Under the pieces are notes generated by a model, which saw nothing but the letters and a program-made list of their open reading frames with translations, searched no databases and was not told where the DNA came from. Position numbers and translations under genes: made by a program. Source: Candidatus Brocadiia bacterium (lineage in GTDB: Bacteria; Planctomycetota; Brocadiia; CAIUPP01). Taken from it: a stretch of DNA of 64,000 bases. Position 1 is the stretch's first letter. The number at the start of each line of letters is the position of its first letter. Location: NCBI GenBank assembly GCA_050015075.1, contig JBEKCB010000004.1:1-64000 (forward strand), written 5' to 3'. Positions 3,212 to 19,644 of the stretch are shown in pieces.

Positions 3212-6184
3212 ATGATCGGTCCAAACTTCGTGCGACATGGCCGTCTCGTTGCCGGCATGCTTCTCATGGCAGCATTCGCTCCATCAGTCTCAGCGGCGGC
3301 ACCGCTCCCGTTGACGAACCACAAGTCGGGCATCTCGGTCTCGCTGTCCGGCAGCAATGGAGCTGACTGGGCCGTCGAGATGACTTACCATGATGAGGAG
3401 ATTGCCGACCAGATCCTCTACGTCAAATCGTCGGTCAACTTCTCCCTGGCCCACAACGCCAATAACACTCTCGAGATTGACAGCGCGTCGAAGCTCCCGC
3501 ATGTCCTGGGCACGACGGTGCCGAAGGACGCTCCCAACGGCGGCGAAATCCGTTACAAGATTGACCGCGACCAGCAGGCGCACGCCTACTGCGGCCCAGG
3601 CGGCTCCCTGCCGCCCTTCGCTGTGGCTTACGCGGCGCCGTTCAACTTCGACACGCTGACCTACAGCGACGCGGCCCGCACGCCTGTGCTGGGCAAGATC
3701 GGGGACAATGGTCTGCCCTATGGCAATTCGCCGCAGGCGACGAAGGCCCGCTTCTGCTACGGGCAGCGCGACGCCTTCGGCAACGAGTGGCACGTGCTGA
3801 CTTATTGGGACAATGACGTGCCGCTGTGCTCCGCCCTGCACGTTGACGGCGGGCGGGCCGAAGGCTCCGACGGCTATTGCGTCCCGGTCTGCGTCAACCC
3901 GCTGACTCCGATCGTGCAGCTCACTGCCGGCGGCTCAGCGCAGTACTATACAACGCCGCTGAAGACCTACCACATCCCGAAAATCTGGGACCGCACGACC
4001 TACCTGACCTCCGGCGTGCAGATCAGTTTCGTGAACCTGACCAACAGCGCCGCGGTGATGTATCGCGTGGACGGCGGCGCGTGGCAAACCTGGTCCGGCG
4101 CGCCGTTGCTCACGGAGGCGCTCTTCTCCGGGTCGAATTCCTCGCACGTGCTCGAAGCCAAGTGCGGCGATTCCGGCGCGGCGCTGAGCCGCGCGATCGT
4201 GTTCAAGCCGGATTATCCTGCCCCGGCGGAGCATCACGGCTACCTGCTCTGGGCCGACGAGGCCGAGCGCCAGGCCCTGATCCACAAGCTCAAGAACGTA
4301 CAGCCGTTCAAGATTTCCTATGAGAACTGCTTCCGCAGCGACAGTTGGGTCCAGGGGTTGCCGGGGAAGCTTACGGACCAGCGCGGCGTCTGGCGCTTCT
4401 GGCCGGGCCTGGTGGGCAATGCCCTGTCCAACGCCCTCGTCGTGGCCGTCGAAGGCCCAGAGACGCCGGTCGCGCCGCTCCTCAAGCAGCGGCTGCTGTG
4501 GATGTCGCGGCTCGAGCCGATCGGCTTCGAGTGCCACATTGACGAGATCACGCCGGCGAAGGACTACCTCAGCGAACTCGGCCAGACGGAAGAGCTGTGG
4601 GTTGACGCGGCCGTCGCGTACGACATCGCGGCGGGATTCTATCGCAGCACACAGGACCCCGGCGGCCTGACGCCGATCGAGGAGATTCTGGTGCGCGACG
4701 GCCTGGCCAAGGTCGCTAAGAGCCTGCTCCAGTTCCGAGACAATTATTCGGCCACCAACGGCGGCGGCGACTCGCACTGGCCGCTGGGCTACGAACTGAG
4801 CCTGGCCGCCATCGCCATGGCCATGCCGACCTACAAGACGCCCTGCTACGGGGCCAGCGGCGGTGACCGTCAGACGATCAATGATCTCCACGACGTCAAC
4901 GGCAAGTACTGGAACCCGTTCCCCGACCAGGGCGCGACGTGGTACGCCGCGGCAACCGACCCGTGGATCGCGCGGCCGGGCTATCCGAATAACGTCTACT
5001 CGTTCCGCTCGGACTACCTGATCACCGACGACGGCTGGTGGGCGGGCGCGAACGATATGGTCGGCGCGCCGTGCAACGCCGGCGGCGGCAGCGACCGCTA
5101 TGTCACCGGCCCCAACGGCACCAAACTGGTTGACGTCCTGTACGGCGATATGGCCAATGCCGAGTGCCGCGTGGAACTGCAGGAGATGAACGGCTACGAA
5201 AACCCGTTTGTCGAGCGCATTGCGGTCCTCGATTGCATGCGCCGCATCAAGGGCGACACGACGCAGGCCGGGTGTGTGACCAACTACCTGCGCCGCCTGC
5301 TGACCAACGGCGCGGTGACCGTCACGTGGAACCCGAAGACGAAGATCTACACGCCCGATGCGCCGCGCGTCGAACCGGCGGTCTGCACCTTCAACCACCA
5401 TTACGAATTCGCCTCGCTGCCCGGCCCGATGGGACTGGTCAACCGCTTCCTGAGCGACCTGAAGGCCTACTACGGCATCAGCGGCGCCATTGACAAGGCC
5501 ACGCATGACCGCATTGAGAATGACACGCGGAAAATCTTCTACGAGCCGTACGGCCTGATCCTGTGCGAAGACCCGGCGACTCTGCCGCCGCACGCGCCGG
5601 AACGCAACCACCCGCCGGTCGTCAAGCCGCTGTTCAAGTACGTGGTCAAGCCCGGCGAGCCCTGTGTGAAGTACGTCGTCGCGTGCTCCCCGGACTGCAA
5701 CCCGCTGAAGATCACCGTCAGCGGCCTGCCCGATGGCGCCACCTGGGACCCGGAAGCCCGGGTCATCAAATGGATGCCGACGGCCAACGACGCCGGCGTG
5801 CATGTCGTGAAGGTCACGGCCGACGACGGCAAGGCCGCTACGACGCGGCCCTTCGCCATGATCGTCAAGGCGGACGCCGGTTCAGGCCGCACTCCTGCGG
5901 CGCCGGCGAACGTTACAGCCGCCCTGACGGCCGATAAGTCGGCCGTGGTGCTCAACTGGACGAAGCCCTCGGACGTCGCCGTCGCGGCCTACGCCATCTA
6001 TCGCGACGGGATCCTCTGGGCGTCGGCGCCCGCCGACGCGACCGCCTGGACCGACAGCGAATTGATCCTGCCCTCGTCGAAAACTCGTTACTATGTCTCG
6101 CTCTGGGCCGTGAACGGCGCGGAGTCGAGCGCCACGACGGCCGCGCCGGACATCATCGAGGTGCCGGCCGCCGACAACCCGTAA
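3212..6184 (+). CDS. Large secreted protein with helical core, putative Ig (He_PIG) domain and C-terminal FN3-like domain
   Basis: Signal peptide (..APSVSAAA); GLPDGATWDPEARVIKWMPT..DAGVHVVKVTADDG Ig motif; PAAPANVTA..VVLNW..YAIYRDG FN3 motif. Confidence 0.7.
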   Translation: MIGPNFVRHGRLVAGMLLMAAFAPSVSAAAPLPLTNHKSGISVSLSGSNGADWAVEMTYHDEEIADQILYVKSSVNFSLAHNANNTLEIDSASKLPHVLGTTVPKDAPNGGEIRYKIDRDQQAHAYCGPGGSLPPFAVAYAAPFNFDTLTYSDAARTPVLGKIGDNGLPYGNSPQATKARFCYGQRDAFGNEWHVLTYWDNDVPLCSALHVDGGRAEGSDGYCVPVCVNPLTPIVQLTAGGSAQYYTTPLKTYHIPKIWDRTTYLTSGVQISFVNLTNSAAVMYRVDGGAWQTWSGAPLLTEALFSGSNSSHVLEAKCGDSGAALSRAIVFKPDYPAPAEHHGYLLWADEAERQALIHKLKNVQPFKISYENCFRSDSWVQGLPGKLTDQRGVWRFWPGLVGNALSNALVVAVEGPETPVAPLLKQRLLWMSRLEPIGFECHIDEITPAKDYLSELGQTEELWVDAAVAYDIAAGFYRSTQDPGGLTPIEEILVRDGLAKVAKSLLQFRDNYSATNGGGDSHWPLGYELSLAAIAMAMPTYKTPCYGASGGDRQTINDLHDVNGKYWNPFPDQGATWYAAATDPWIARPGYPNNVYSFRSDYLITDDGWWAGANDMVGAPCNAGGGSDRYVTGPNGTKLVDVLYGDMANAECRVELQEMNGYENPFVERIAVLDCMRRIKGDTTQAGCVTNYLRRLLTNGAVTVTWNPKTKIYTPDAPRVEPAVCTFNHHYEFASLPGPMGLVNRFLSDLKAYYGISGAIDKATHDRIENDTRKIFYEPYGLILCEDPATLPPHAPERNHPPVVKPLFKYVVKPGEPCVKYVVACSPDCNPLKITVSGLPDGATWDPEARVIKWMPTANDAGVHVVKVTADDGKAATTRPFAMIVKADAGSGRTPAAPANVTAALTADKSAVVLNWTKPSDVAVAAYAIYRDGILWASAPADATAWTDSELILPSSKTRYYVSLWAVNGAESSATTAAPDIIEVPAADNP

Positions 6185-6242: not shown

Positions 6243-6752
6243 ATGGAACGTCGAGAACTTCGAACGACTCCGCAGTTCGTCCGAAAACGGGCCAAGCACT
6301 ACCTAAAGTGGAACTTGATTATCTTTGTGGTATTCGCAGCGTCAGGTGCTCTATTATTCTATCAGGGAGTGCCGGTGCTGCATGCCGTTGGATGTATCTT
6401 CCTTCTTTTTTCGTCCTTATTGCTGCTAATCCCCTTCGGCAATCTTGGAGATATGCTATGGCGTAGTGAGCAGGCGGCAAAAGCCATGCTTTACGTTGAC
6501 GAGTCGCGTTTAGCGACCTTTGAGGAAAGCAGATGGCAGTACGTGGACTTGACTGATATTGAATCAATTAAAACTATGTGGTCAGGCCGGAAGATCAGGA
6601 TTTGCCGAAGGCGAAGGATTCTGGGCCTCGTCCTTGAAAAGGACCTCAATACGCCTTATTTTGAGCGTCGAGAGCTGGAGGATTTTCTCGCCTGCGTACG
6701 GCAGGCAGCAATGCAGGCACACAGGCAGGCGACCGACGAACGACGGGGATGA
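6243..6752 (+). CDS. Hypothetical membrane protein (2 TM plus soluble, PH-like tail)
   Basis: 169-aa ORF with two hydrophobic helices; visibly more AT-rich than neighbours. Confidence 0.55.
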   Translation: MERRELRTTPQFVRKRAKHYLKWNLIIFVVFAASGALLFYQGVPVLHAVGCIFLLFSSLLLLIPFGNLGDMLWRSEQAAKAMLYVDESRLATFEESRWQYVDLTDIESIKTMWSGRKIRICRRRRILGLVLEKDLNTPYFERRELEDFLACVRQAAMQAHRQATDERRG

Positions 6753-6756
6753 CGAC

Positions 6757-8349
6757 TCAGATGCATGGAAAGCTGACGGTGAACGTGGAGCCCCGGCCGA
6801 CGTGGCTTTCCACGTGGACGCTGCCTCCGTAACGGGTGACGAGCGCCTTGACGAAGGCCAATCCGAGCCCGGAACCCGCAATGCCCTTCCGCACCGCTTG
6901 CGGGCCTCGAAAGAACTCGCTGAAAAGGCGCAAAGAATCCTTGTCCGAGATGCCAGGACCGTGGTCGCGGACGCTGGCGAAAAAGGACCCGTTCTCCACG
7001 CCGCCCGATATGACCACATCGCCGTTGCCGCCTGAGTACTTGACCGCGTTCTCGATGAGGTTCGCGAAGATGATGCGCAGGCCGGCGGGATCGGCGCGGA
7101 TTCCGGGCGAGCCGGCCGGCAGTTCGACACGCAGCCGCAGGTTTTCCGCTTCCGCCGCCTTCCTGTGATTCTCGGCCACTTCGCGGATGACGGCTACGAT
7201 ATCCACAGCCGTGCAGTCCGCCAGGGCGCGGCCGTCGCGGATCGCCATGAGTTCCGCCAGTTTCTTCGACAGTTCCTGCACGACGACAACTTTGGCGAGC
7301 GCGCCGCGCATGAGAGAGTCCCTGTCCTCGGCCGACAGGCGGTCTCCCAGCTTGGCAAGCGTCGAGACACAGGTATGCGCCGTGGCCAGCGGGGAGACGA
7401 TCTGATGCATCAGGAGGGCGACAAATCGCGACTTCGCCTGGTCAACGCGGCGCATCTCCTGAACCTGGCCCGACAGATGCGCGCTTTGAAGCGCGAGGCT
7501 GGCGATGATGCCGACCTCCGCCAGAAACCATTCGTCGTCCTCGCTGAAATGATCGCGCCGGCTATTGAGGACCTCGACCACCGCGACGACGGCATTGGGA
7601 GACGCCGGGTCTTCCTCACCGGCGGGCGAAGTCTCGCGCCGTCCGTGGATCGGGACGGCAAGCACGTTGCGCACCGGGAAACCGTACTGCTGCTGAAAAC
7701 CCTGGCGCACGTGAAGTGTCGGAAAGATATAGGAAAGTTCTGCGGAAGTGTCGAAGATGTTGACCATGGTATCGTGCTTTGCGGCGTAGCCGGCGGGTGA
7801 GTCGTCGGCAATCGGCACGTCGAAGCCGACCAGGTCCTGCCCGAACATTGCGGCGGCGGTAAGCTGCTTGTCACCCTGCTCCAGCAAATAGACGATACCG
7901 TGTTCCGCGTCGCAGCCGATGGACGCCTGCCGGGCGATCGTCCGAAGGAGCGCGCCGGCGTCGCTGTGACGCGTGATATCCTGGCACACCGTCAGCAGGT
8001 GCTCGAGGTCCGCGAACCGGCGGCGAAGCCACGAGGTTTCGCCCGGCTCGCCGGCCTTGCCTCCCGGCGGCGGAGCCAGCGTGATCGTCCGGAATTGCTC
8101 GCCTTCCTCCTCTTTGACGCGCCGGAAGAACGGGCATAGCCTGCAGAGCGACCGCTTCCGTGGCACGGACGGCTGATGATGGTCCAGGCATAATGTGCCC
8201 GCGATTCCCCAACAGATGCGCCCCCCGTTTTTGCCGCCGTTGATCCCGTCAGACGCGGCATCGAGCGCGGTGGGACAGGTTCCCTTCTTCGAGGAGTCGG
8301 CCCCGGGTCCGCGGCCGCACGCCATGACTTCCCAGCAATTGAGTTTCAA
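6757..8349 (-). CDS. Cytoplasmic sensor histidine kinase: Cys-rich two-CW domain + GAF + HisKA + HATPase
   Basis: N-term CWEVMAC..CP..CWGIAGTLC..CRLC; GAF (NVLAVPI, VEVLNS..FSEDDE); H-box MHQIVSPL; NLIENAVKY, DHGPGI, GSGLGL. Confidence 0.9.
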   Translation of the reverse strand: MKLNCWEVMACGRGPGADSSKKGTCPTALDAASDGINGGKNGGRICWGIAGTLCLDHHQPSVPRKRSLCRLCPFFRRVKEEEGEQFRTITLAPPPGGKAGEPGETSWLRRRFADLEHLLTVCQDITRHSDAGALLRTIARQASIGCDAEHGIVYLLEQGDKQLTAAAMFGQDLVGFDVPIADDSPAGYAAKHDTMVNIFDTSAELSYIFPTLHVRQGFQQQYGFPVRNVLAVPIHGRRETSPAGEEDPASPNAVVAVVEVLNSRRDHFSEDDEWFLAEVGIIASLALQSAHLSGQVQEMRRVDQAKSRFVALLMHQIVSPLATAHTCVSTLAKLGDRLSAEDRDSLMRGALAKVVVVQELSKKLAELMAIRDGRALADCTAVDIVAVIREVAENHRKAAEAENLRLRVELPAGSPGIRADPAGLRIIFANLIENAVKYSGGNGDVVISGGVENGSFFASVRDHGPGISDKDSLRLFSEFFRGPQAVRKGIAGSGLGLAFVKALVTRYGGSVHVESHVGRGSTFTVSFPCI

Positions 8350-8428
8350 TTCTATGGCCCGAAAGAACCGGTACCGGGGCGGCCGATGCGCCGTGCGCGT
8401 GCGTCGAAGGCTGGGGACCTTCGGCTCG

Positions 8429-9430
8429 TCAGGGCTCGCGGGAAGGCACGGCCGCCTCGACCTCCGGCCTGGGAAACAGGCCGGCCGCCTTCACGATATC
8501 CGGCACGGCTTCCTCCCACTCGATCGCCTGGATATGCACGCCGCTCACGCCCTCGATTTCGCGGAGTTGCTGAATCAACTCGACCGAAATTTTCTTGCCC
8601 TCCTCGCGGGCCTTGTCCTTCTTGACGCCGGCCATGCGCTGGATCAGCGCATCGGGGACCTTCACGCCCGCCACCGAGGACTGCATGTAGCGAAGCATCC
8701 CAGCGCTCTTGGGCACAATCACGCCTGCGAGGATGCAGGTCCGCGTGTGCAGGCCGCGGTCCCGCGCGCGCGACATGATGCCCTTGAACTCCTCGATGTC
8801 GTATACGCCCTGGGTCTGGATAAAGTCAGCGCCCGCTGCCACTTTCTTTGCCAGACGGAGAACGCGGATATCGCCCACTTCCTTCACCGGCGTCCAGGCC
8901 GCCCCGATGAAGAGCCGCGGCCCGCCGTGCTCAATCGCGTCTCCGCCCTCGAGCAGCCCCTCGTCGCGCATCTTCTTCAGCATGGCCACCAGTTGGATCG
9001 AGTCCACGTCATAGACGTTCTTCGCGCCCGGATGACCCTTCAACTTGCCGGCCGCGCCGAAGGACTGGTGGTCGCCCGCGATGCAGAGGCAGTTGCGGAT
9101 GCCGAAGCTCGCCGCGCCCAGGACATCGCTCTGGATGGCGATCCGGTTGCGGTCTCGGCAGGTCATCTGCATTACCGGTTCGATCCCGCGCTGAATCAGC
9201 AGGACGGCCGCGGCGATGCTCGAGAGGCGCACCACGGCGGTCTGGTTATCGGTGATATTGAGCGCGTCGGCATAACTGCGGAGCAGATCGCCCTTGGTCA
9301 CCACCACGCTCGGGTCGCAGCCCGGCGGCGGGCCGATCTCCGCGGTCACGGCGAACTGCCCGCTGCGGAGCACCCGCTCGAGCCGGCTGCCGGAGATGAG
9401 AGGTTTCGCGGCTATGTCAAGGCTTGGCAA
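8429..9430 (-). CDS. metF: Methylenetetrahydrofolate reductase
   Basis: AVTAEIGPP, NITDNQTAVVRLSS, MQMTCRDRNRIAIQSD, AGDH, KKVAAGADFIQTQ. Confidence 0.93.
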   Translation of the reverse strand: MPSLDIAAKPLISGSRLERVLRSGQFAVTAEIGPPPGCDPSVVVTKGDLLRSYADALNITDNQTAVVRLSSIAAAVLLIQRGIEPVMQMTCRDRNRIAIQSDVLGAASFGIRNCLCIAGDHQSFGAAGKLKGHPGAKNVYDVDSIQLVAMLKKMRDEGLLEGGDAIEHGGPRLFIGAAWTPVKEVGDIRVLRLAKKVAAGADFIQTQGVYDIEEFKGIMSRARDRGLHTRTCILAGVIVPKSAGMLRYMQSSVAGVKVPDALIQRMAGVKKDKAREEGKKISVELIQQLREIEGVSGVHIQAIEWEEAVPDIVKAAGLFPRPEVEAAVPSREP

Positions 9431-10097
9431 TTTTCAAGTCCTCCCTTTTCACTCGACGAGGCCCGCCATGATGCGACGAGGCCCAGTTCTTGGGCGCAAT
9501 GTACGTGGAGGCGAGGTCGTCCAGCTTCCCCAGCGCCTGCGCCCGCTCCACAATCTTTATCCATCCGCAGTCCGTCTCGGGGTTGATCTCGCATTTCCCG
9601 TCCTTCGAGCCGCCGCACGGGCCGTTCAATATGCTCTTGCTGCACCGCGCGATGGGGCAGATGCCGAACGTCCGGTCGAGGACGCAGTCGCCGCAACCGC
9701 TGCACATCTCCTGCCACTGCCCATGCTCCGTCGTGGCGCCGATAAAGAGTGTGTCGACGCCCGGGAAAACGCGAATGGCGCCGAGGTGGTCCGCCAGGAG
9801 GTTCGTGCCCGCGCCGCAGGAGAAGGACACGACCGCGTCCGGCTTGTCGTCTCCGGCGAGCACCGGCTCGACGAATTCCCAATCGCAGACCCGCTGGCAG
9901 GTTGCCGCGCGGACCTCAAGGTCCATTCCCTTGTCCGCGGCCATGACCGGCAGCAGACAGGCCATTTCTTCCGTCTCTTTCTCGCCGCCGGCAAAGCAAA
10001 CCGCCGCGCAGGAGCCGCACCCGAGGAGCAGCACCTTCCGATACGGCGCCAGGAATGCAAGTATGCTCTCGATCGGCTTTCGGCGGACGACAATCAT
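9417..10097 (-). CDS. metV: MetV, Fe-S subunit of methylene-THF reductase
   Basis: GCGSCAAVC, CSGCGDC, CPIARCSKSILNGPCGG..GKCE..DCGW; overlaps metF start. Confidence 0.9.
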   Translation of the reverse strand: MIVVRRKPIESILAFLAPYRKVLLLGCGSCAAVCFAGGEKETEEMACLLPVMAADKGMDLEVRAATCQRVCDWEFVEPVLAGDDKPDAVVSFSCGAGTNLLADHLGAIRVFPGVDTLFIGATTEHGQWQEMCSGCGDCVLDRTFGICPIARCSKSILNGPCGGSKDGKCEINPETDCGWIKIVERAQALGKLDDLASTYIAPKNWASSHHGGPRRVKREDLKIAKP

Positions 10098-12070
10098 TGG
10101 GAAACTCCTTGCACGGAGGGACTTTCGGAAAGGACCTGCCCGGCCTCGACGAATTCGATCGTCACTTTCGGGCGCACCGCGCGCGCCCGCTGCACGGCGG
10201 CGGTCAGGACTTGCTTGGCCCGTTGCTGACCGCTCGCGTGCTTGCAGGCAGCCGGGCTGCAAAGCACGACTCGGATTTCCTCTATCCCGTTCGCGATCAG
10301 GCGCAGAAGGTCGCGAGCGGCGAGGTGCGTGACGCACGGCACCCGGAGGTGAACGGCAGCGGCGTCGGACTCGCTCTTTGACGTCGCCGCGTGCGCACAC
10401 GTCACCACTGCGGCGCGTGGGCGCGCAGGCCTGGCGACGTCAAGGTTGCGGTCAATCTGCTCGCGGAACTGTTCGCGGGTCCAGTGTCCCACCGTGATTG
10501 CGCCCTGGGGACACTCCGCCGCACACAGGCCGCATGCCTGGCAAGTCTCCGGCGCCGCGACCATCTTCTTCTGTATCGTGATGCCGTCGAGCGGACAGAG
10601 GCGGAAACAGGCGAGGCAGGAAGCGCATTTGACCTCGTCAATCGTCGGCCCGGACCCGCAATTCAGGCAGCGGCCGGCTTCCGTCAGCGCCGCGGCCTGA
10701 TCGTAACCGAGTTCGTGCTCATGGAACCCCGCGAGCCGCTCCGGGCCGGGAACCTGGGGCATCGGCATGCGGTCGAGGCGATGGAGCTTGTCGTGCGCCG
10801 CTTTCGGGAACTCGCCGACAATCGCGCGGTCTTCCGGCGGCGGACTCTTCATGATTCCAGTCCGCAGGAACTGGTCCACGATGGCGGCAGCCCGGCGGCC
10901 GTCCGCAATCGCCTGGATGGCGCTGCCGGGCCCGTTGAGGACCTCGCCTGCGAGAAACACGCGCGGCTCGCTCGTGCTGTGCAATTCCCTGTCGGCGACA
11001 ATCCGGCCGCGTCGGTCCAACTTCACCGGCGAACCGAGAGTCCAGCTTGTGTCGCCCGCCTGGCCGATTGTCAGCACCACCATGTCGGCGGCGACCGCCT
11101 TCACGTGGGCGGGATCGTACTGAGGGCTGAACCGCTTTTTGTCGTCGAAGACCCGAGTGACGCGCATCAATTCGAGACCCGCGACATGGCCGTCCTTCTT
11201 CAGCACCCGTTTCGGAGCCCAGGACGGCATCAGGCCGATGCCCTCTTCCGTGGCGGCGGCGATCTCCTCTTCGGAAGCGGGGATCTCGGCGTGCGACTCC
11301 ATGCAGGCCATCGTCACCTGCTCCACCCCGAGGCGGCGCAGGGTTCGAGCCACGTCCACGGCCACGTTGCCGCCGCCGATCACCAGCGCTTTGCGGCCTA
11401 CCGGCACGGGATTTCCGGCCCACACATCCATCATCAGGGGAATGGCAGCGACAAACCGCTCCGCGCCGAAGCCGGGTAAGGCCAGGCCGCGGCTGCGCGA
11501 CAGGCCGGCGCACACGATGATCGCCTGGTATCCGTCAGCCTGGAGATCGGAAAGTTGCACGTCGCGGCCGATCTCGCAATTGCACTTGAGCTCTATCCCC
11601 CGCGCGAGGATCGCCTCCACGTCCTTCCTCAAAATGCGCTCGGGAAGCCTGTACTTCGGGATGAGATTCAGCATGCCGCCCGGGTGTGCCAGTCGCTCGA
11701 GGACGGTGACTCCATACCCCATCTCCCGCAAGTCCTGCGCGGCGGTCAGGCCGGACGGCCCTGCGCCGACGATGGCGATCTTGCCACGGGTCACGGGCAC
11801 CAACTCCATAGCCGGGGCCGGCGCGGTCTCGATCTCCGTGACGAAGCGTTTCAACTCCTTCAGCGCCACGGCGGCGTCCAGCGCTCCACGGCGGCATTTT
11901 GCCTCGCAGGGGTGCTGGCATATCCGGCCGCAGACGGAAGGGAACGGGTTGACCTTTCGGATCACCTGGAGCGCTTCCTCGAACCTGCCCCAAGCGATCA
12001 AGTTCACATATTCCCGCGTGTCGGTGCGGACCGGGCATGCGGCCTGGCAAGGGGGAAACGGGCGTTCCAC
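10094..12070 (-). CDS. GltD/NfnB-like FAD/NAD(P)H oxidoreductase fused to a 2x[4Fe-4S] ferredoxin domain and a C-terminal MvhD/FlpD-like domain
   Basis: CQAACP..CGRICQHPCEAKC; GAGPSG; GGGNVAVD; EAGRCLNC; CASCLACFRLCP and CQACGLCAAECP; VTC..RVPC..LCSPAACKH. Confidence 0.85.
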   Translation of the reverse strand: MERPFPPCQAACPVRTDTREYVNLIAWGRFEEALQVIRKVNPFPSVCGRICQHPCEAKCRRGALDAAVALKELKRFVTEIETAPAPAMELVPVTRGKIAIVGAGPSGLTAAQDLREMGYGVTVLERLAHPGGMLNLIPKYRLPERILRKDVEAILARGIELKCNCEIGRDVQLSDLQADGYQAIIVCAGLSRSRGLALPGFGAERFVAAIPLMMDVWAGNPVPVGRKALVIGGGNVAVDVARTLRRLGVEQVTMACMESHAEIPASEEEIAAATEEGIGLMPSWAPKRVLKKDGHVAGLELMRVTRVFDDKKRFSPQYDPAHVKAVAADMVVLTIGQAGDTSWTLGSPVKLDRRGRIVADRELHSTSEPRVFLAGEVLNGPGSAIQAIADGRRAAAIVDQFLRTGIMKSPPPEDRAIVGEFPKAAHDKLHRLDRMPMPQVPGPERLAGFHEHELGYDQAAALTEAGRCLNCGSGPTIDEVKCASCLACFRLCPLDGITIQKKMVAAPETCQACGLCAAECPQGAITVGHWTREQFREQIDRNLDVARPARPRAAVVTCAHAATSKSESDAAAVHLRVPCVTHLAARDLLRLIANGIEEIRVVLCSPAACKHASGQQRAKQVLTAAVQRARAVRPKVTIEFVEAGQVLSESPSVQGVSQ

Positions 12071-12072
12071 TA

Positions 12073-12504
12073 TCAGTGCTCCTGGGATAAAGCGGTCTTC
12101 GTGGGGCGTGGGTCAGGCTGGCCGAGCATTCCTCGGACCTCGGCCATCAACGTTTCGGCGTCAACCGGTTTCTCAAGGAACCGGTCGGCCGGGAGCCACA
12201 GGCTGTCCGGCTCGAAGGCCATCTGGAACTGCCGGCCGACGGCGGACAAGACGAGAAGGCGGGAGTTCTTCAACGACGCGTCGGCGCGCAATTCCCTGCA
12301 CAACTCGAATCCCGCTTCCGGGCTCCCCATGATGATGTCCAGGATGACCAGGTCGGGCTTCTCGGCGCGGGCCAGCTCCAGGCCGCTTTGTCCATCGTAC
12401 GCCGCGCTCACTCGGTATCCCGCTTCCTCCAGGAGGAGTTTGTGGGCGGTCACGAGTTCCCGATCATCGTCAATCAGAAGTACACTTTTCGCCGGGGCGC
12501 TCAT
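12073..12504 (-). CDS. Stand-alone response regulator receiver
   Basis: LIDDD, LVILDIIM, FLEKPVD; no output domain. Confidence 0.9.
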   Translation of the reverse strand: MSAPAKSVLLIDDDRELVTAHKLLLEEAGYRVSAAYDGQSGLELARAEKPDLVILDIIMGSPEAGFELCRELRADASLKNSRLLVLSAVGRQFQMAFEPDSLWLPADRFLEKPVDAETLMAEVRGMLGQPDPRPTKTALSQEH

Positions 12505-12527
12505 CTGCCAGACCTCTCCTGTTGGCG

Positions 12528-12917
12528 CTATTTCTTCACTCGAAGGCACCGCTTCACCGCGGCAACGAGGTCCTGCTGGACGGCGGTCTTCGGAAGGACC
12601 TCTTTCGCGCTGAGGGCGTGATCTTTCTCGAACGCGTACATCATCATCCCGGGGCTCTCGGCCACTGCGGTAACGAGGACGATTGGGATGTTGGAGTATT
12701 CCGGGCTCGCCGACAGTTCATCGCAGAAAGTGAACCCATCTTTCTCCGGCATCCGCACGTCCAGCAAGATCAGGTCCGGGTGGGTCTTCTTCAGATGTTT
12801 CGTCGCTGCGCCCGTGTTCTCCGCGGTGGCGACAGTGTACGACTCGGCTTCGAGCATCAGCTTTACCGCAAGAAGAAAATCCTTGTCATCGTCCACGACG
12901 AGTATTTTTGCTCCCAT
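12528..12917 (-). CDS. Stand-alone response regulator receiver
   Basis: VVDDD, ILLDVRMPEKDG, LVTAV, VLPKT. Confidence 0.9.
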   Translation of the reverse strand: MGAKILVVDDDKDFLLAVKLMLEAESYTVATAENTGAATKHLKKTHPDLILLDVRMPEKDGFTFCDELSASPEYSNIPIVLVTAVAESPGMMMYAFEKDHALSAKEVLPKTAVQQDLVAAVKRCLRVKK

Positions 12918-12973
12918 GTCTCTTCCTTCCACTGGTCTTGCGCTCATCTTCCCACCTTTGAACGCTTTACAGC

Positions 12974-13026
12974 TTGACGACCACGCTGCGATTTGCTACT
13001 ATACCACAGCGTGGTACGAGTGTCAA
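12974..13026. promoter_or_regulatory. Overlapping divergent sigma70-like promoters with a palindrome
   Basis: +: TTGACG(12974)-17-TACTAT(12997); -: TTGACA(13026)-17-TATAGT(13003); TACCAC-agc-GTGGTA at 13002-13016. Confidence 0.65.
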
Positions 13027-13074
13027 CCTCGGGCGCGGGCGCCGAGAGACGCTTGGAAGAAGGAGGGCAAGCCT

Positions 13075-13530
13075 GTGGCCTATCTGATGATCGTGGATGA
13101 TGACGAGGCATTCACCGAGGCGATAGCCCTTGCCCTGCGCCACGAGGGGCACGAGATGGTCATCAAGTCCGAAACCGGCGCCGCGTTGGAAGAGATGCAA
13201 AGTCGCGCGCCCGACCTGGTCATCCTGGACGTGATGTTTCCTGAAGACGATTTCGCCGGGTTGGAGCTGGCGCGCGCAATGTACAGGCGCCGTGAGCTGA
13301 GCCGAATTCCCATCCTGATGCTGTCGGGGCTGAATCAGAAGCTCACCATGAAGTCCGGCGCCTCGGATTCCGACGCCGCCCGGCTGCCGGTCACCGAGTT
13401 TCTGGACAAGTCCCTGGACCTCGATGAACTGATAGGCAAGGTCAAGTCCTTTCTCCCGCCCGCGGTTCGCCAGGCGAACAGCTTGCCGGACCGGAACGCT
13501 GGGCCGAGGGAGACAGGGCAGCGCCTGTGA
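13075..13530 (+). CDS. Stand-alone response regulator receiver
   Basis: GTG start after GGAGG; IVDDD, LVILDVMFP, MLSG, FLDKS. Confidence 0.88.
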   Translation: MAYLMIVDDDEAFTEAIALALRHEGHEMVIKSETGAALEEMQSRAPDLVILDVMFPEDDFAGLELARAMYRRRELSRIPILMLSGLNQKLTMKSGASDSDAARLPVTEFLDKSLDLDELIGKVKSFLPPAVRQANSLPDRNAGPRETGQRL

Positions 13531-13606
13531 CTTCCCGCCGCCTTTTCGCAACAATTCTTCAGAGCGTTCCCAACCCGCCGCAGTACGAGCATGCGCGAAT
13601 CACCAC

Positions 13607-15352
13607 TTGACAGCGGCTGCTTCGACGTATAGTCTCGTCGTTGAAAGGCGATTGACCGCTTTTGCGCACGGAACTTCGGAGCCTCCCGGAATGGCGAACT
13701 CGCAGGCGCTCGCGGGGCTGCGTCCGGTTCAGGAATGGGTGAACCTCTTGCGTGACCCGGCCAGCCGCGCGTATGCTGCGCTCTCGGCGATCTACGGCGC
13801 GGACCGGCCGCTTCTGCGCGAGAAGGCTGCGTTCGTCCTCGACCTGCTCGACCTCTTCCCGCGCCTCTTTCCCGGCGACGCCCCGATCCTGCTCGTGCGC
13901 TCCGCCGGGCGGATCAACCTGATCGGCATGCATGTGGATCACCGCGGCGGCGTGGTCAACCCGATCGCCGTGCGCGAGACCTGGTGCCTCTGCCGGCCGC
14001 GCCAGGATGACACCCTCGATTGCGCGACTCCTCACGAGCGCCTGTTCCCGCGCCGAAAATTCTGCATTCGGCAGGAACTGGGATCGGAGAAGATCGAAGA
14101 CTGGGACCGCTGGACGCAGGCGCGGGCTGCGGAGCGCAAGGCCGCCGGCACCGCGGGCGACTGGATCAATTACATCAAGTCCGCCGCGCTCTACCTCGAA
14201 CACATTCGTCCGACTCTTCGCGGAGCGCCGGCGTCTCCGTTGCGCGGGGCGGACATGCTCATTGCGGGCACTCTGCCGCGCGGCGCCGGAGTCAGCTCGT
14301 CCTCCTCGGTCGTCGTCGTCGCTGCGGAGGCGCTAACCCACATCAACCGCCTGCCGATCTCCGACCCGGAGCAGGTGGAAATCTGCGGCCAGGCGGAATG
14401 GTACGTCGGCACGCGCGGCGGGTGCGGCGACCACGCCGCGATCAAGTTCGGCAAGTTCGGCCGCGTGTCGAGCCTCGGCTCGAATCCGCTGACCGTGGAC
14501 TCCGCGCCGTTCCCGGAGGACCTGCGCGTGGTGCTCTGCAATAGCCTGATCGAGGCCAACAAGTCGTCCACCGCGCGAGACGAGTTCAACAACCGGATCG
14601 CCTCGTACGAATTCGGCCTGCTGCTGCTGAGGAAACGAAATCCGGGACTCGCTCCGAAAATGCGGCAGTTGCGCGACGTGAATTGCGGATCTCTGGGGCT
14701 GACTGAGGCCGGAATCTGCCGTCTGCTGCTCGCCCTGCCGGGGCGGATGACGCGTGAGGAGATTCTCGCGGCGCTGCCCGAGCACGACGAGCGGATCCGG
14801 CATATTTTCGGCTCGCACGTGCCGCCGGCGCGCGGATACCCGGTCCGGCAAATCTGCGCCTTCGGGATGGCCGAATGCCTGCGGTCCGGCCTGGCGGCCC
14901 GGGCTCTGCATAGCGGAAACACGGCCGAGTTCGGCGAGATCGTCAATGTCTCGCACGACGGCGACCGCGTCACGCGCGTGGCCTCGTCCGGCCGGCGTGA
15001 GCCGCTGGACAAATCCATGCCGGATCGGCTCATCGAGGCGCGCGCCGCGGACCTGGAGAGCGGCGATCCGGCCCGCGCGGCGGGCGCGGCGCTCTGGAGG
15101 ATGCCCGGCGGATATGACGCGAGCCTTCCTGAACTCGATATTCTGGTGGATGCCTCTCTGGCGACTCATGGCGTGGTGGCCGCCCGGGTGGTCGGAGCCG
15201 GCCTCGGCGGCGCGGTGCATGCGATTGTGCATAAGGACTGTGTCGCCGACCTGCTCAAGAACGTCGCCGGCAGCTATTACGAGCCCCGCCGCCTTGAAGT
15301 CGCCGCCGAAGTCTACTCGCCGGTTGGCGGTTCGGGCGTCTTCGCGGTATGA
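13607..15352 (+). CDS. GHMP sugar kinase (galactokinase family); start may be ATG 13691
   Basis: SAGRINLIGMHVDHRGG, PRGAGVSSSS, GGCGDHAA, GAGLGG. Confidence 0.85.
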   Translation: MTAAASTYSLVVERRLTAFAHGTSEPPGMANSQALAGLRPVQEWVNLLRDPASRAYAALSAIYGADRPLLREKAAFVLDLLDLFPRLFPGDAPILLVRSAGRINLIGMHVDHRGGVVNPIAVRETWCLCRPRQDDTLDCATPHERLFPRRKFCIRQELGSEKIEDWDRWTQARAAERKAAGTAGDWINYIKSAALYLEHIRPTLRGAPASPLRGADMLIAGTLPRGAGVSSSSSVVVVAAEALTHINRLPISDPEQVEICGQAEWYVGTRGGCGDHAAIKFGKFGRVSSLGSNPLTVDSAPFPEDLRVVLCNSLIEANKSSTARDEFNNRIASYEFGLLLLRKRNPGLAPKMRQLRDVNCGSLGLTEAGICRLLLALPGRMTREEILAALPEHDERIRHIFGSHVPPARGYPVRQICAFGMAECLRSGLAARALHSGNTAEFGEIVNVSHDGDRVTRVASSGRREPLDKSMPDRLIEARAADLESGDPARAAGAALWRMPGGYDASLPELDILVDASLATHGVVAARVVGAGLGGAVHAIVHKDCVADLLKNVAGSYYEPRRLEVAAEVYSPVGGSGVFAV

Positions 15353-15406
15353 TGGTTCTCGCCTGGGTCCTGTTCGATCACAATCACGATTGAGATAAGG
15401 CGTCCT

Positions 15407-17974
15407 ATGTCGTCGGAGGTTTATTCCATCGCGATGGCGGCCGGAGCGAGCAGTCGCATGCCGCCGGAACTGCGCCCGAAGGCATGCTGCCAGGTCGGCA
15501 CGATCTCGGTCATCGAGTATGCCCTGCAGACGTACGAGCAGGCGGGGATCCACAAGCACGCCGTCGTCGTCGGGCGCGGCGGCGAGAAGGTGATGGACAC
15601 GCTCAGCGGCAAGGGCTACCACGTCCTCTTCGCGTATCAGACGCAGCCCAAGGGGACCGGCGACGCGGTGCGCTGCGCGGTGGAGATGCTCGCGGGCATT
15701 GACAGCCCGGAGTACGTGCTCATCGCCGCCGGCGACAAGGTCATCGCGCCTGAAGTGATCCGCGGACTGATGGAGAGTTTCGCCGCATCGGGCAACGACC
15801 TGTGCCTGGTCGCCGGCCGCAGCAGCGATTATCCCGGCGCGGGGCGGATCGTCCTGCGCGAAGGGCACGCACAGGCGATCATCGAGGTGCCGGACATCAA
15901 GGTCCGGCAGCTCGCCGCGCGGCTTAGGTCCCCGGCGACCAACGCGACGATAACGGCGGGCGAACTCGCCGCGCTCGCCGAGCAATACGTCAGCGTGAAG
16001 AAGCTCGGCACGGTTTTTCCCGCCTTGAAGCGGCTGACCGCCGGCTCGCCCGAGAAGAAAGTCCCGTGGGAGACGGTCGCGGCGGCCGCGGAGGAAATCC
16101 CCGACGCCTTCGACCTGCCTTGCGGCCTGGTGCCGGTGCAGGAAGCGTTTGAGGCGACCTGGGCGAACCTCAGCGTCTACGCGGGCCGATTCGCGGCCAT
16201 CCGCAGCGCCGTCGAGCAACTCCGCTCGGACAACGTGCAGCGCGAGTGGTACCTCACGGACATCGTGAAGATTCTCGCTTCCAAGGGCGGCGCCGTCGGC
16301 CTGTTCCGGGTGCAGAACCCGGAGGAGTGCATGGCCTTCAACACGGTGCAGGAGCTCGAAGAGGTCCGGAAAGTCTACGCGTTGCGCTCCATCAGCGCCG
16401 AGAAGTATCCCGGCGTCGAAACCTGGGCGAACTGCTTCGCCGCGCGCAACGAGAAGGGATTGCTCGCGCAGGCGGTCGAGGGACTCGGCCGGCGGATCGG
16501 TTCGACGAAGACCTGCATCCTCGTGCGGTCGCCCGGCTTGATCAACCTGATGGGCCGGCACATTGACCACCAGGGCGGCCTGTGCAACATGATGGCGATT
16601 GACCGCGATATCGTGCTGGCCGCCGCGCTCCGCGACGACGACCGGGTCAACCTGTGGAACGCCTCCGAGCGCGACTACCCGCACCGCACGTTCACCTTCA
16701 GCGAGCTGGCGACCGACATCGTGTGGGAGGACTGGCGGCGCACGCTCAACACGCAATTCATGCAGCGCTATGTTTCGAAGGCCGCCGGCGACTGGGTGAA
16801 CTACGTCAAGGGCGCCGCCCTGCGGCTGCAGCACCGCTTCCGCGACCGCAAACTGCGCGGCATGGACGCATTCGTCTGCGGCAACATCCCGGCGGCCGGC
16901 GGACTGAGTTCCTCCTCCGCCCTCGTCGTGGCGACGGCCGACGCGCTGGTCGAGCTCAACGCGCTCAACGTCGGCGTCCAGGAATTTGTGGACCTCTGCG
17001 GCGAAGGCGAATGGTTCGCCGGGCAGCGCGGCAGCAACGTGGACCACGCGGCGATCAAGTTCAGCCGCGCGAACGAGGTCCTCACGGTGTCGTTCTTCCC
17101 GTTCGAGATCGCCGCGCATCATCCGTTCCCGCCCGACTGCGCGCTGATGGTCTGCGACTCGGGCGCTTCCTCGATGAGGGCGGAGAATGCGCGAGCGCGG
17201 TTCAATTCACGCATCGCCTGTTTCCACATGGCGCGGGAGATCATCAAGAAGAAATTCCCGGCGTTTGCGCCGCGGATCGAGCACCTTCGCGATATCAATG
17301 CGCGCCGGCTCGATATCACGCTGCCGGCGCTCTACGCGCTCGTCAAGGAACTACCGCTTCAGGTTCAGCCCGATGAGGTTGAGCGGATGGCGCGAGAGTA
17401 TCCATCCGTCGCCATGTCTGTGAGCGCGCTCGACGTGCGGGCGCATGAGTTCCCGGTGCGCGGCGTGGCGCTCTACGGCCTGGCCGAATGCGAGCGCGCG
17501 ATGAGGGCCGGCGAGCTGCTGCAGGGGAACGAGGCCGCGGCGCTCGGCGGAATGATGAATCTCTCTCACGACGGGGAACGCGTTGCGCAATGGAGCCCGA
17601 AGCAGGCGCCGTTCGACTGCGCGGCGACAGACGCGGTGCTGGACCGGCTGGCGCGGAACGCCGCGTCGCTGCGGCCGCTCGCGGAGTGCGGCGCGGCGCT
17701 GTGGCAGCAGCCCGGCTCCTACGCGTGCAGCACGCCGGAGGTGGACCGGATGGTGGACATCGCCAGGGAATGTCCCGGGACGCTGGGCGCGCAGATCGCC
17801 GGCGTCGGACTCGGCGGGTGCGTGATGATCCTGGTCCAACGGGAATCCGCGGCCGAGGCGCAGGATCTTCTGAGACGGAAATATTACGAGCCTCAGGGCA
17901 TCGAGCCGCGCATGTTCGTGTGCCGGCCGACGCATGGCAGCCAGACGTTCACCACCATCGAAGCCGAACGGTAA
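15407..17974 (+). CDS. Fusion of GlmU-like nucleotidyltransferase and galactokinase-like GHMP domain
   Basis: MAAGASSRM..PK, QPKGTGDAV, DNVQREWYLTDIV; then PGLINLMGRHIDHQGG, PAAGGLSSSS, GVGLGG. Confidence 0.85.
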   Translation: MSSEVYSIAMAAGASSRMPPELRPKACCQVGTISVIEYALQTYEQAGIHKHAVVVGRGGEKVMDTLSGKGYHVLFAYQTQPKGTGDAVRCAVEMLAGIDSPEYVLIAAGDKVIAPEVIRGLMESFAASGNDLCLVAGRSSDYPGAGRIVLREGHAQAIIEVPDIKVRQLAARLRSPATNATITAGELAALAEQYVSVKKLGTVFPALKRLTAGSPEKKVPWETVAAAAEEIPDAFDLPCGLVPVQEAFEATWANLSVYAGRFAAIRSAVEQLRSDNVQREWYLTDIVKILASKGGAVGLFRVQNPEECMAFNTVQELEEVRKVYALRSISAEKYPGVETWANCFAARNEKGLLAQAVEGLGRRIGSTKTCILVRSPGLINLMGRHIDHQGGLCNMMAIDRDIVLAAALRDDDRVNLWNASERDYPHRTFTFSELATDIVWEDWRRTLNTQFMQRYVSKAAGDWVNYVKGAALRLQHRFRDRKLRGMDAFVCGNIPAAGGLSSSSALVVATADALVELNALNVGVQEFVDLCGEGEWFAGQRGSNVDHAAIKFSRANEVLTVSFFPFEIAAHHPFPPDCALMVCDSGASSMRAENARARFNSRIACFHMAREIIKKKFPAFAPRIEHLRDINARRLDITLPALYALVKELPLQVQPDEVERMAREYPSVAMSVSALDVRAHEFPVRGVALYGLAECERAMRAGELLQGNEAAALGGMMNLSHDGERVAQWSPKQAPFDCAATDAVLDRLARNAASLRPLAECGAALWQQPGSYACSTPEVDRMVDIARECPGTLGAQIAGVGLGGCVMILVQRESAAEAQDLLRRKYYEPQGIEPRMFVCRPTHGSQTFTTIEAER

Positions 17975-19417: not shown

Positions 19418-19644
19418 TCGCATAGCCGCCGTGTGTTCACTCAACAGCGCACAAATCCCATGATGCCCCGCCTTTGCAGGCGCCGATGCGTTGCCGATCG
19501 TTCCGCGCCCGCGTTTTTCCCCGCCGGTTTGAGCTAAACATTCCGCGCTTTCCCGCGATGATCGCTTACAGAGTTTCCCGATATACCGCGGAAGCTCCAG
19601 GTGCGGCAAATCCTTCGTTGCCCTTGCTAGGCGAAAGGAAAGCG

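Follow-up and report, generated by a model that had tools for sequence, protein, structure and literature searches.

Gene organization of the locus

We analysed 64,000 nucleotides (nt) of DNA from a Candidatus Brocadiia bacterium (assembly GCA_050015075.1, contig JBEKCB010000004.1, positions 1 to 64,000; hereafter the window). At 8429-12070 of this stretch, three co-directional genes encode a putative methylene-tetrahydrofolate reductase (MTHFR) of two subunits, MetV and MetF, and a fusion flavoprotein, which we call G:

10094-12070, minus strand: G, 658 amino acids (aa); GltD/NfnB-type Fe-S/FAD/NAD core, 2x[4Fe-4S] ferredoxin domain and MvhD domain
9417-10097, minus strand: metV, 226 aa; Fe-S subunit of a MetVF-type methylene-tetrahydrofolate (THF) reductase; DUF5981
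8429-9430, minus strand: metF, 333 aa; flavin-containing, catalytic subunit; MTHFR domain

G starts with GTG, with AGGAG 9 nt upstream and the stop codon of a receiver gene 2 nt ahead. The metV ATG at 10097 lies inside the ATGA that closes G, so that the two genes overlap by 4 nt, and metF starts with TTG at 9430, 9 nt after GGAGG, overlapping the end of metV by 14 nt. A 327-aa open reading frame (ORF) at metV is the open frame extended upstream of the ATG at 10097. MetV, encoded directly upstream of metF, matched PF12225 (DUF5981) in Pfam with an E value of 9.2e-35, and its Cys 27, 30, 94, 132, 135, 138, 147, 152, 161, 169 and 177 were invariant in an 18-sequence alignment. MetF matched the MTHFR TIM-barrel family PF02219 over residues 17-317 (E 1.9e-35, 123 bits against a cut-off of 24) and is 64-70% identical to the MetF proteins adjoining G in loci L001, L008, L086, L087 and L093. 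Judged by these family matches, the predicted MetV and MetF are a MetVF-type methylene-THF reductase. A preliminary description of the window, made from its letters, had reported three overlapping genes with metV and metF downstream of G, and the coordinates, overlaps and family matches confirm it.

Domain architecture of G

Four domains were recognized along G:

11825-12055, minus strand (G residues 6-82): Fer4_20 domain, Pfam E 3.7e-20; Cys 8, 12, 47, 51, 55, 59 and Glu 56
10898-11782, minus strand (G residues 97-391): flavin adenine dinucleotide (FAD) and NAD(P) Rossmann core, Pyr_redox_2 E 2e-33
10493-10669, minus strand (G residues 468-526): CxxC pair and 2x[4Fe-4S] ferredoxin domain, Fer4 dicluster families at 476-526
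10151-10423, minus strand (G residues ~550-640): MvhD/FlpD domain with a FlpD match; Cys 558, 579, 604 and 609 form the predicted [2Fe-2S] site

With both Fer4_20 and Pyr_redox_2 matched, G belongs to the GltD/NfnB family. Its cofactor ligands are kept in 126-135 of 135 aligned homologues: C47 of the Fer4_20 domain occurs in 134 and C51, C55, E56 and C59 in all 135, each of Cys 482, 485, 488, 492, 510, 513, 516 and 520 of the ferredoxin domain occurs in 134, and all four MvhD Cys are present in 126. The closest PDB sequences to residues 6-475 were large GltD-containing chains, 9bov_A (E 1e-83), 8oh5_C (6e-80) and 9n5u_A ('NfnA'; 2.5e-78). The next relatives of the core were the NfnB-type chains 4ylf_B (2e-62) and 5jca_L (3e-60), then GltD (2e-48) and dihydropyrimidine dehydrogenase (DPD; 4e-38). 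G has no NfnA (PyrK-like) or GltB partner gene beside it, its neighbours being the receiver gene and metV. The top NCBIfam model for G was PRK12771 ('NAD(P)-binding protein'; residues 5-528), which scored under its cut-off. The annotation given to G is only 'FAD-dependent oxidoreductase' or 'glutamate synthase beta-like', and a look-up of G in the ESM Atlas returned generic GltD-like clusters only, including one in which 99% of members carry FlpD.

The C-terminal part of G resembles subunits of heterodisulfide reductase-type complexes. Residues 475-547 were matched by the HdrA chains 9sfi_A, 8rvu_a and 7bkb_A in a PDB sequence search, and the NCBIfam model NF040770 for HdrA2 matched residues 459-624, that is, the ferredoxin and MvhD domains together (E 2.8e-20). 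By sequence similarity, the ferredoxin domain of G is like the C-terminal ferredoxin domain of HdrA. The Cys motifs of the MvhD domain are VTC (C558), RVPC (C579) and CSPAAC (C604 and C609). FlpD (PF02662) matched residues 558-624 with an E value of 6.6e-6 (26.6 bits against a cut-off of 22.3); this short match takes in only positions 14-80 of the 123 in the profile, and the same domain scored 40-87 bits in 8/8 homologues from relatives. When a 12-sequence profile of the C-terminal domain was searched against the PDB, MvhD chains were recovered with E values of 4e-26 to 3e-23 and nothing else fell below 0.01. An AlphaFold2 model of residues 455-658 was built from a 16-row alignment (mean predicted local distance difference test score 76, predicted template-modelling score 0.65). 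With this model, Foldseek placed the MvhD chains 5odc_D, 5odh_D, 7bkb_F and 8rvu_F at ranks 1-4 (E 3.6e-4 to 7.7e-4, template-modelling score by target 0.51-0.54), followed by ferredoxin domains including that of HdrA. Pfam, profile-to-PDB and fold searches therefore agree on an MvhD/FlpD match, a point on which the preliminary description had staked its reading, and the hidden Markov model scan bore out the GltD-type core, the 2x[4Fe-4S] domain and the MvhD/FlpD domain that it had assigned.

Conserved linkage of G and metV

We surveyed the neighbourhood of G in three genome samples and a contig database. The class sample comprised the window's own genome and 40 relatives of the same class (41 genomes), with full-length G defined as a best match of E <= 1e-100. 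All 29 full-length carriers (29/29) had a MetV domain within ~1.2 kb on the same contig; one further match (genome G029) was cut by a contig end. Among 301 genomes sampled evenly from the rest of the phylum there were 7 carriers, 6 of them with G next to MetV and the seventh at a contig end, and 41 Syntrophobacteraceae genomes gave 11 carriers, 10 with G next to MetV and the eleventh at a contig end. The contig-database scan, from which 80 loci were kept and in which matches reaching residue >=617 were counted as full-length, was crowded by MvhD-less Collinsella proteins and is no census. Among the matches listed, it contained 9 full-length G loci, of which 7 had metV-metF directly downstream, namely L001 (Nitrospirae), L004-L006 (Planctomycetota), and L008, L010 and L028 (Chloroflexota); the groups of these seven were Nitrospirota, Planctomycetota, Chloroflexota and a 'Thermotogae' metagenome-assembled genome. 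At L003 the contig ends 321 nt past the G match. The survey, which the preliminary description had proposed, was strongly positive in Planctomycetota, Syntrophobacteraceae, Nitrospirota and Chloroflexota.

By ORF coordinates, the 4-nt overlap of G and metV recurs in L086, L093 and L010. In genome G016, metF lies 200 kb off and G and metV are still neighbours, so MetV is the likely partner or contact of G. The conserved gene order is strong evidence that G and metVF constitute a functional unit. No G-MetV fusion was seen by eye, and PF12225 was absent from the precomputed Pfam lists of 240 proteins. Predictions of a complex of full-length G and MetV scored 0.34, 0.35 and 0.32, and one control scored 0.43, values that speak neither for binding nor against it.

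An alternative is that this adjacency is loosely functional or not functional, G being a general NAD(P)H:ferredoxin-type oxidoreductase or a redox sensor linked to the two-component genes, and MetVF being fed by free ferredoxin. The type II MetVF does work with reduced ferredoxin in vitro (PMC8760232; this paper, PMC9430772 and PMC5861303 are cited throughout from excerpts). GltD-ferredoxin proteins of the same subfamily without MvhD and metVF exist in Collinsella and Bacillota, a receiver-G fusion exists (P0052, described below), and metVF is absent from the 3.1 kb that follow the full-length G of L002 (Nitrospirota), which also counts against G as a dedicated partner of MetVF. However, the gene order is conserved across phyla with every miss in the three genome samples (29/29, 6/7 and 10/11) at a contig end, the stop of G and the start of metV share a 4-nt ATGA, and G and metV stay together even where metF has moved away. 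We regard a loose or fortuitous adjacency as very improbable.

Nucleotide-binding motif of G

The second GGGNVAVD motif of G is followed by ACMES, and in alignments its Cys-Met-Glu stands opposite the YRR of 9bov_A and 8oh5_C, exactly the exchange that had been pointed out from the letters of the window as CMES where GltD has YRR. The Tyr-Arg-Arg that follows the second Rossmann strand and forms the 2'-phosphate site for NADPH is thus not in G. The Glu, E258, occurs in 134/135 homologues; Cys-Leu/Met-Glu stands in place of the Tyr-Arg-Arg of NADPH-using relatives. The Arg pair of Tyr-Arg-Arg binds the 2'-phosphate of NADPH, and an acidic residue ending the second Rossmann strand usually goes with NADH and not with NADPH. 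Because Glu replaces the Arg pair at this strand, NADH would be the donor to G. The Cys-Leu-Glu motif was also found in the GltD domains of HdrL proteins adjoining MvhD-MetVF (L024, L033 and L036). Cys-Leu/Met-Glu was considered as a signature of MetVF-linked proteins and rejected, being common to unlinked GltD-ferredoxin proteins.

Comparison with known MTHFR types and flavoproteins

Four MTHFR types have been distinguished: MetF, MetVF, RnfC2-MetVF and HdrCBA-MvhD-MetVF, with the electron-input module of types III and IV encoded upstream of metV (PMC8760232). A single-chain GltD-ferredoxin-MvhD partner lies outside these four types as the excerpts give them, and we found no description of such a chain with MetVF in the literature searched, which did not cover subscription journals. 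A 13C-mapping study of anammox bacteria (PMC8027424) does not mention methylene, MetF or MTHFR.

Type IV, known from Moorella thermoacetica and Sporomusa ovata, is one of the closest known systems. Both systems have a MetV and MetF core, a four-Cys MvhD, an HdrA-like ferredoxin domain and the input genes directly upstream of metVF. In Moorella only, the 163-kDa HdrA also carries a GltD domain, its only predicted NAD(P)H site, and NADH oxidation reached 190 U/mg with this protein vs 0.5 U/mg with the S. ovata HdrA, which has no GltD domain (PMC9430772); the GltD-type FAD/NAD(P)H domain as NADH entry point is thus shared with G. A search with G returned 733 long proteins at E <= 1e-40, and the best 120 of these 733, named 'HdrA-like polyferredoxin' by JGI and ~1250-1670 aa long, share 35-45% identity with G along roughly half to three quarters of its length, covering its first ~500 residues. 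At least 5 Desulfobacterota-type loci (L013, L024, L025, L033 and L036) encode a ~1400-1500-aa HdrA with inserted GltD ('HdrL'-like), followed by mvhD, metV and metF, and at L036 hdrC and hdrB lie upstream of this series. In contrast to type IV, G is without the TrxR-like flavin core and the inserted ferredoxin domain of HdrA, and HdrA models match its residues 459-624 only, its flavin core being matched by models of the GltD family. HdrB and HdrC are missing from the G cluster, the CCG domain (PF02754) occurring in the genome only on contigs C14 and C44. Furthermore, MvhD is fused in G rather than free, and one 658-aa input chain stands against four proteins. As far as sequence comparison tells, G thus resembles a type IV system cut down to its NADH module, C-terminal ferredoxin domain and MvhD, the HdrA TrxR-like core and HdrBC being absent. 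The suggestion of a new MTHFR type holds in that the arrangement is absent from the four published types, yet it is less foreign than first described, since Moorella HdrA already holds a GltD NADH module. For the same reason, the claim that a GltD-like chain replaces HdrABC is right about the lack of HdrBC and an HdrA core at the locus and overstates the distance between the two systems.

Type III, the RnfC2-MetVF of Acetobacterium woodii, is likewise a three-gene unit with one Fe-S flavoprotein gene before metV and metF, and the function proposed here for G-MetVF, that of a soluble NADH:methylene-THF oxidoreductase, equals the one given for it in the excerpts. The input proteins differ: RnfC2 is RnfC-like with flavin mononucleotide and has a MetV-like N-terminus, whereas G is GltD/NfnB-like with FAD, ferredoxin and MvhD domains, and no RnfC-type family was among its Pfam or NCBIfam matches.

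Proteins of NfnB, StnC and NfnABC type (4ylf_B, 5jca_L, 8oh5_C, 9bov_A and 9n5u_A) share Fer4_20 and the FAD/NAD(P) core with G at E values of 1e-83 to 3e-60. They differ in having Tyr-Arg-Arg where G has Cys-Met-Glu, and their partners are NfnA or NuoEF/NuoG-like parts, not MvhD or MetV. Entry 8oh5, titled 'Formate dehydrogenase-O, major subunit', we take to be the S. ovata Stn complex. DPD (1h7x and others), whose core matches that of G, is an architectural analogue: it consists of an N-terminal 2x[4Fe-4S] domain, an FAD/NADPH core, a C-terminal 2x[4Fe-4S] domain and a flavin-containing TIM-barrel, which form a linear wire from the nicotinamide to the second flavin. DPD, however, is one chain with a pyrimidine as acceptor, whereas here the TIM-barrel would be the separate MetF, reached through MvhD and MetV. 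The HdrA2 of Methanosarcina, an HdrA-MvhD fusion, resembles G in its C-terminal ferredoxin domain and fused MvhD (the NF040770 match to residues 459-624); it has an HdrA/TrxR-type flavin core and works with HdrB2C2 on the heterodisulfide, in contrast to the GltD-type core of G.

Proposed electron path

We consider it fairly probable, on gene order and family membership, that G, MetV and MetF make up one soluble NADH:methylene-THF reductase in which G is the electron input of a linear chain, flanking two-component genes probably providing control. NADH would reduce the FAD of G. Electrons would then pass singly by way of the N-terminal [4Fe-4S] pair and the C-terminal 2x[4Fe-4S] ferredoxin domain to the [2Fe-2S] cluster of the fused MvhD, and from there by the MetV Fe-S clusters to the MetF flavin, where 5,10-methylene-THF would be reduced to 5-methyl-THF. 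In principle, the path would be reversible. Two receiver-only regulators and a kinase with two-CW and GAF domains would probably control the operon or modulate the enzyme. The domains, ligand motifs, gene overlaps and conserved synteny were observed directly; we infer that the three proteins associate, that NADH is the donor, that the clusters follow one another as described, that electrons do not bifurcate and that G docks on MetV through MvhD.

The same complex may instead be electron-bifurcating at the NfnB-like FAD of G, and confurcating in reverse. From 2 NADH, one electron pair would run downhill through the ferredoxin and MvhD domains, MetV and MetF to methylene-THF (-200 mV), and the other would be raised to ferredoxin by way of the N-terminal [4Fe-4S] pair; in carriers that oxidise acetate, reduced ferredoxin would drive methyl-THF oxidation with NAD+. 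The core of G is nearest to those of bifurcating enzymes (9bov_A, 8oh5_C and 9n5u_A, then the NfnB-type chains) and farther from GltD and DPD, NfnB makes up one of the four flavoprotein groups in which bifurcation is known (PMC5861303), and G has two separate Fe-S branches, one N-terminal and one C-terminal. Carriers of G-MetVF include CO2-fixing anammox-type genomes as well as Syntrophobacteraceae, and in the latter the oxidation of methyl-THF by NAD+ alone would be uphill (E0' -200 vs -320 mV), and a bifurcating MTHFR using NADH and ferredoxin has long been postulated (PMC8760232). On the other hand, G bears no sequence mark of a bifurcating flavin, GltD and DPD share the core and are non-bifurcating, and neither an NfnA-like partner nor a defined high-potential [2Fe-2S] cluster near the FAD can be placed without coordinates. 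The NADH-dependent RnfC2-MetVF of A. woodii is also non-bifurcating and can still work in reverse, if slowly (PMC8760232), and the ligands of the MvhD cluster are lost in several lineages. We therefore hold a bifurcating G-MetVF to be rather unlikely. The fuller version, a minimal bifurcating MTHFR with one NfnB-like flavin tuned by a receiver bound or fused to G, appears to us just as doubtful. If true, it would be a three-protein device making, or in reverse consuming, low-potential ferredoxin at the MTHFR step in anammox bacteria, sulfate reducers and peat Planctomycetota.

Several observations weigh against the linear NADH:methylene-THF reductase in its simplest form. Three sequences of the hydrazine-synthase family (L084, L085 and L091; genomes G006, G016 and G009) read C-G-C-C in the MvhD domain, with Gly for the second cluster Cys, yet have strong FlpD matches of 68-74 bits, and the MetVF-linked L004, L092 and L046 miss two or three of the MvhD Cys. 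The second Cys is also missing in L089 and P0114, and P0116 is truncated. Because ligands are incomplete in some MetVF-linked homologues, the predicted MvhD [2Fe-2S] cluster is no obligatory relay in every lineage. Similarly, Cys-Leu-Glu is found in GltD-ferredoxin proteins unlinked to metVF (Collinsella and Bacillota) and the MetVF-linked L028 has Tyr-Arg-Arg; the motif is thus not specific to MTHFR, and an NADH preference would follow from a rule of thumb. That G and MetVF would form a complex is read from gene order alone, and this complex may by analogy be loose, because the Hdr/MvhD proteins of S. ovata were not co-purified with MetVF and interacted with it in pull-downs only (PMC9430772). 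Finally, the second metVF of the window genome, on contig C6 (described below), could be its main Wood-Ljungdahl enzyme.

The history of the fusion also runs against a single origin. We built a maximum-likelihood tree of GltD cores from 56 rows out of 98 tblastn segments, after removal of near-duplicates and stop-containing segments, with 200 bootstraps and a midpoint root. The MetVF-linked G cores were united in 0/200 bootstrap trees, and the starred branches force at least 3 changes. The core of the window's G fell in a well-supported clade (99/98) with forms from Nitrospirota, other Planctomycetota and Syntrophobacteraceae; the forms of the hydrazine-synthase family f4 branch elsewhere, the G of L046 lies among HdrL domains, and L010, L028 and L088 lie across the midpoint root. 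The tree led us to reject the idea that G proteins are one clade with a single gain of MvhD. Because the MetVF-linked cores do not form one group, GltD-type modules seem to have been recruited to MetVF more than once or to have been extensively reshuffled.

Carriers of G and the other C1 genes of the window genome

The electron donor of MetVF-type MTHFR is disputed for acetogens (PMC8760232 and PMC9430772), and it decides whether the MTHFR step of the Wood-Ljungdahl pathway conserves energy, wastes it or is neutral. The gene for G, a compact candidate for the input subunit, keeps its place beside metV in Planctomycetota, Syntrophobacteraceae, Nitrospirota and Chloroflexota, and the three-gene system bears on NADH as donor, on co-reduction of ferredoxin and on the role of MvhD outside hydrogenase and Hdr complexes. 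The Planctomycetota carriers include every genome of the hydrazine-synthase family that was sampled, there with G beside the only MTHFR. In this family (f4, of the same class as the window genome), hydrazine-synthase alpha homologues were found in 2/2 genomes tested, all 13 genomes have a single MetV, which adjoins G, and a single MTHFR gene was counted in 5/5 genomes checked. The Wood-Ljungdahl pathway is the route of CO2 fixation in anammox bacteria. Because of this, and because the only MTHFR accompanies G, G-MetVF would be the pathway MTHFR of the anammox-type genomes. Hydrazine-synthase alpha was not found in the window genome nor in one family-mate. NCBI gives the name 'Candidatus Brocadiia bacterium' to one G homologue of 50% identity. 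P0063, which NCBI names as from the cultured Desulforhabdus amnigena, belongs to the G family, and an identical protein adjoins MetV in one searched genome; an organism for the genetics and biochemistry of G-MetVF is therefore probably at hand. The arrangement is widespread and conserved and, as far as the literature searches reach, uncharacterised.

The window genome (G000) is 4.64 Mb long in 66 contigs and 93.6% complete. As the preliminary description had it, no further Wood-Ljungdahl gene was detected in the window by the family searches run. CODH/ACS (CdhC and CODH), fhs (FTHFS) and folD lie on other contigs, so by family matches the predicted pathway is present in the genome. Two further gene groups bear on the MTHFR step:

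Contig C6, 170690-177192 (L094 2690-9193): second MTHFR cassette, lpdA-hydS-hydL-protease-metV2-metF2, ~5 kb from fhs
Contig C44, 16184-20105 (L095 7184-11105), minus strand: hdrC-hdrB-hdrA-mvhD cluster, stand-alone, not beside metVF

The C6 cassette encodes the dihydrolipoyl dehydrogenase LpdA (TIGR01350, 567 bits) and a [NiFe] hydrogenase whose large subunit (NF033181, 660 bits) is followed by a maturation protease and whose small subunit is without a Tat signal. The MvhD of the C44 cluster is canonical (FlpD, 172 bits), and a Fer4_22 protein follows the cluster. Among loci of relatives lacking G, metVF is preceded by HydS-HydL-HyaD in 5/8 and by LpdA in 2/8. The HydS-HydL-HyaD-MetV-MetF order suggests an H2-linked MetVF, and metF beside a [NiFe] hydrogenase has been remarked for 'Ca. 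Syntrophonatronum acetioxidans' (PMC6295475). The family-mates G002 and G003 have no G and only lpdA-metV-metF, so the G cassette may be an addition in the genus of the window organism. Together, these gene orders show MetVF to be served, by prediction, by interchangeable input cassettes, namely G, HydSL, LpdA and HdrL-MvhD.

With these genes in the genome, G-MetVF might also be part of a larger, type IV-like assembly, in which the fused MvhD would dock G onto the C44 HdrCBA-MvhD or the cytoplasmic [NiFe] hydrogenase of C6, and H2 or a disulfide, not NADH alone, would be the actual donor or co-acceptor. MvhD in solved complexes bridges a hydrogenase or formate dehydrogenase to HdrA, and the chains matched by G come from such entries; the genome holds both a stand-alone hdrCBA-mvhD and a signal-peptide-less [NiFe] hydrogenase beside its second metVF, and at L089 a hydrogenase maturation protease follows G-metV-metF. 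But hdrB, hdrC and hydrogenase genes are absent from beside G in the window and, by eye, in most loci examined, the hydrogenase-metVF and G-metVF cassettes alternate among relatives, and the NAD(P)H/FAD site of G is complete in itself. Such an assembly seems to us quite improbable.

At least 6 further GltD-like paralogues occur in the window genome, on contigs C12 (10306-11979), C15, C5, C31, C17 and C11. The C12 paralogue is read through two in-frame TGA codons and is a possible selenoprotein, as is a relative from genome G001, and the C11 paralogue has the NADPH-type Tyr-Arg-Arg. Contigs C6 and C44 have 62-66% GC. Near-identical DNA to 8300-13000 was found in peat-metagenome-labelled sequencing runs only, with at least half of the sampled words in 13/24 rows listed and 3 marked as possible source; no RNA run was among the runs listed for this region.

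Flanking two-component genes

Regulatory genes and a promoter-like site flank the MTHFR genes on both sides:

12998-13026, minus strand: promoter-like site TTGACA-17-TATAGT with a TG extension, upstream of the first receiver; 11/12 matches, a consensus match only
12528-12947, minus strand: receiver-only response regulator, 139 aa; Pfam Response_reg 1.1e-21
12073-12549, minus strand: receiver-only response regulator, 158 aa; Pfam Response_reg 5e-19
6757-8349, minus strand: sensor histidine kinase with Cys-rich two-CW N-terminus and GAF domain, 79 nt downstream of metF

The site at 12998-13026 is a possible operon promoter; three promoter-like sites were counted in 6500-13700 against 0.8 expected, and the minus strand from 13700 to 6500, a stretch that includes the kinase, showed no terminator-like site. 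The kinase matched HATPase_c (1.3e-23), GAF (3.4e-9) and the two_CW_domain model NF045718 (84.4 bits against a cut-off of 35), and the receiver directly upstream of G matched the DVU0259-family receiver model weakly, at 57.6 bits where the cut-off is 160. Three receiver-domain genes lie near the MTHFR genes in all, at 12073-12947 on the minus strand and at 12688-13530 on the plus strand.

A kinase and receivers also flank G-metVF in L086, L093, L008, L046 and L010. The Cys-rich kinase N-terminus was alike by eye in L086, L093 and L008, the kinases of L046 and L010 not being compared there, and such flanks were not seen at the f4 loci, L001, L004 or L087. In P0052 (823 aa, from a cluster of 2 member sequences) a G-like chain carries a fused receiver at its N-terminus, mirroring the gene order in the window. 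This fusion hints at direct control of the enzyme by a receiver; P0052 may also be a sequencing or gene-calling artefact.

Other genes in the window

Two large GHMP-kinase/galactokinase-like genes at 13607-17974 (plus strand), the second fused to an N-terminal nucleotidyltransferase (855 aa), suggest sugar-1-phosphate activation by their family membership. They are followed at 17987-20376 (plus strand) by a nitrite/sulfite reductase-family protein (NIR_SIR and NIR_SIR_ferr, 476 aa) and a multihaem cytochrome c with doubled CXXCH (300 aa). At 3212-6184 (plus strand) lies a gene for a secreted-looking protein of 990 aa, in which Pfam recognizes a single domain, the Ig-like He_PIG, close to the C-terminus.

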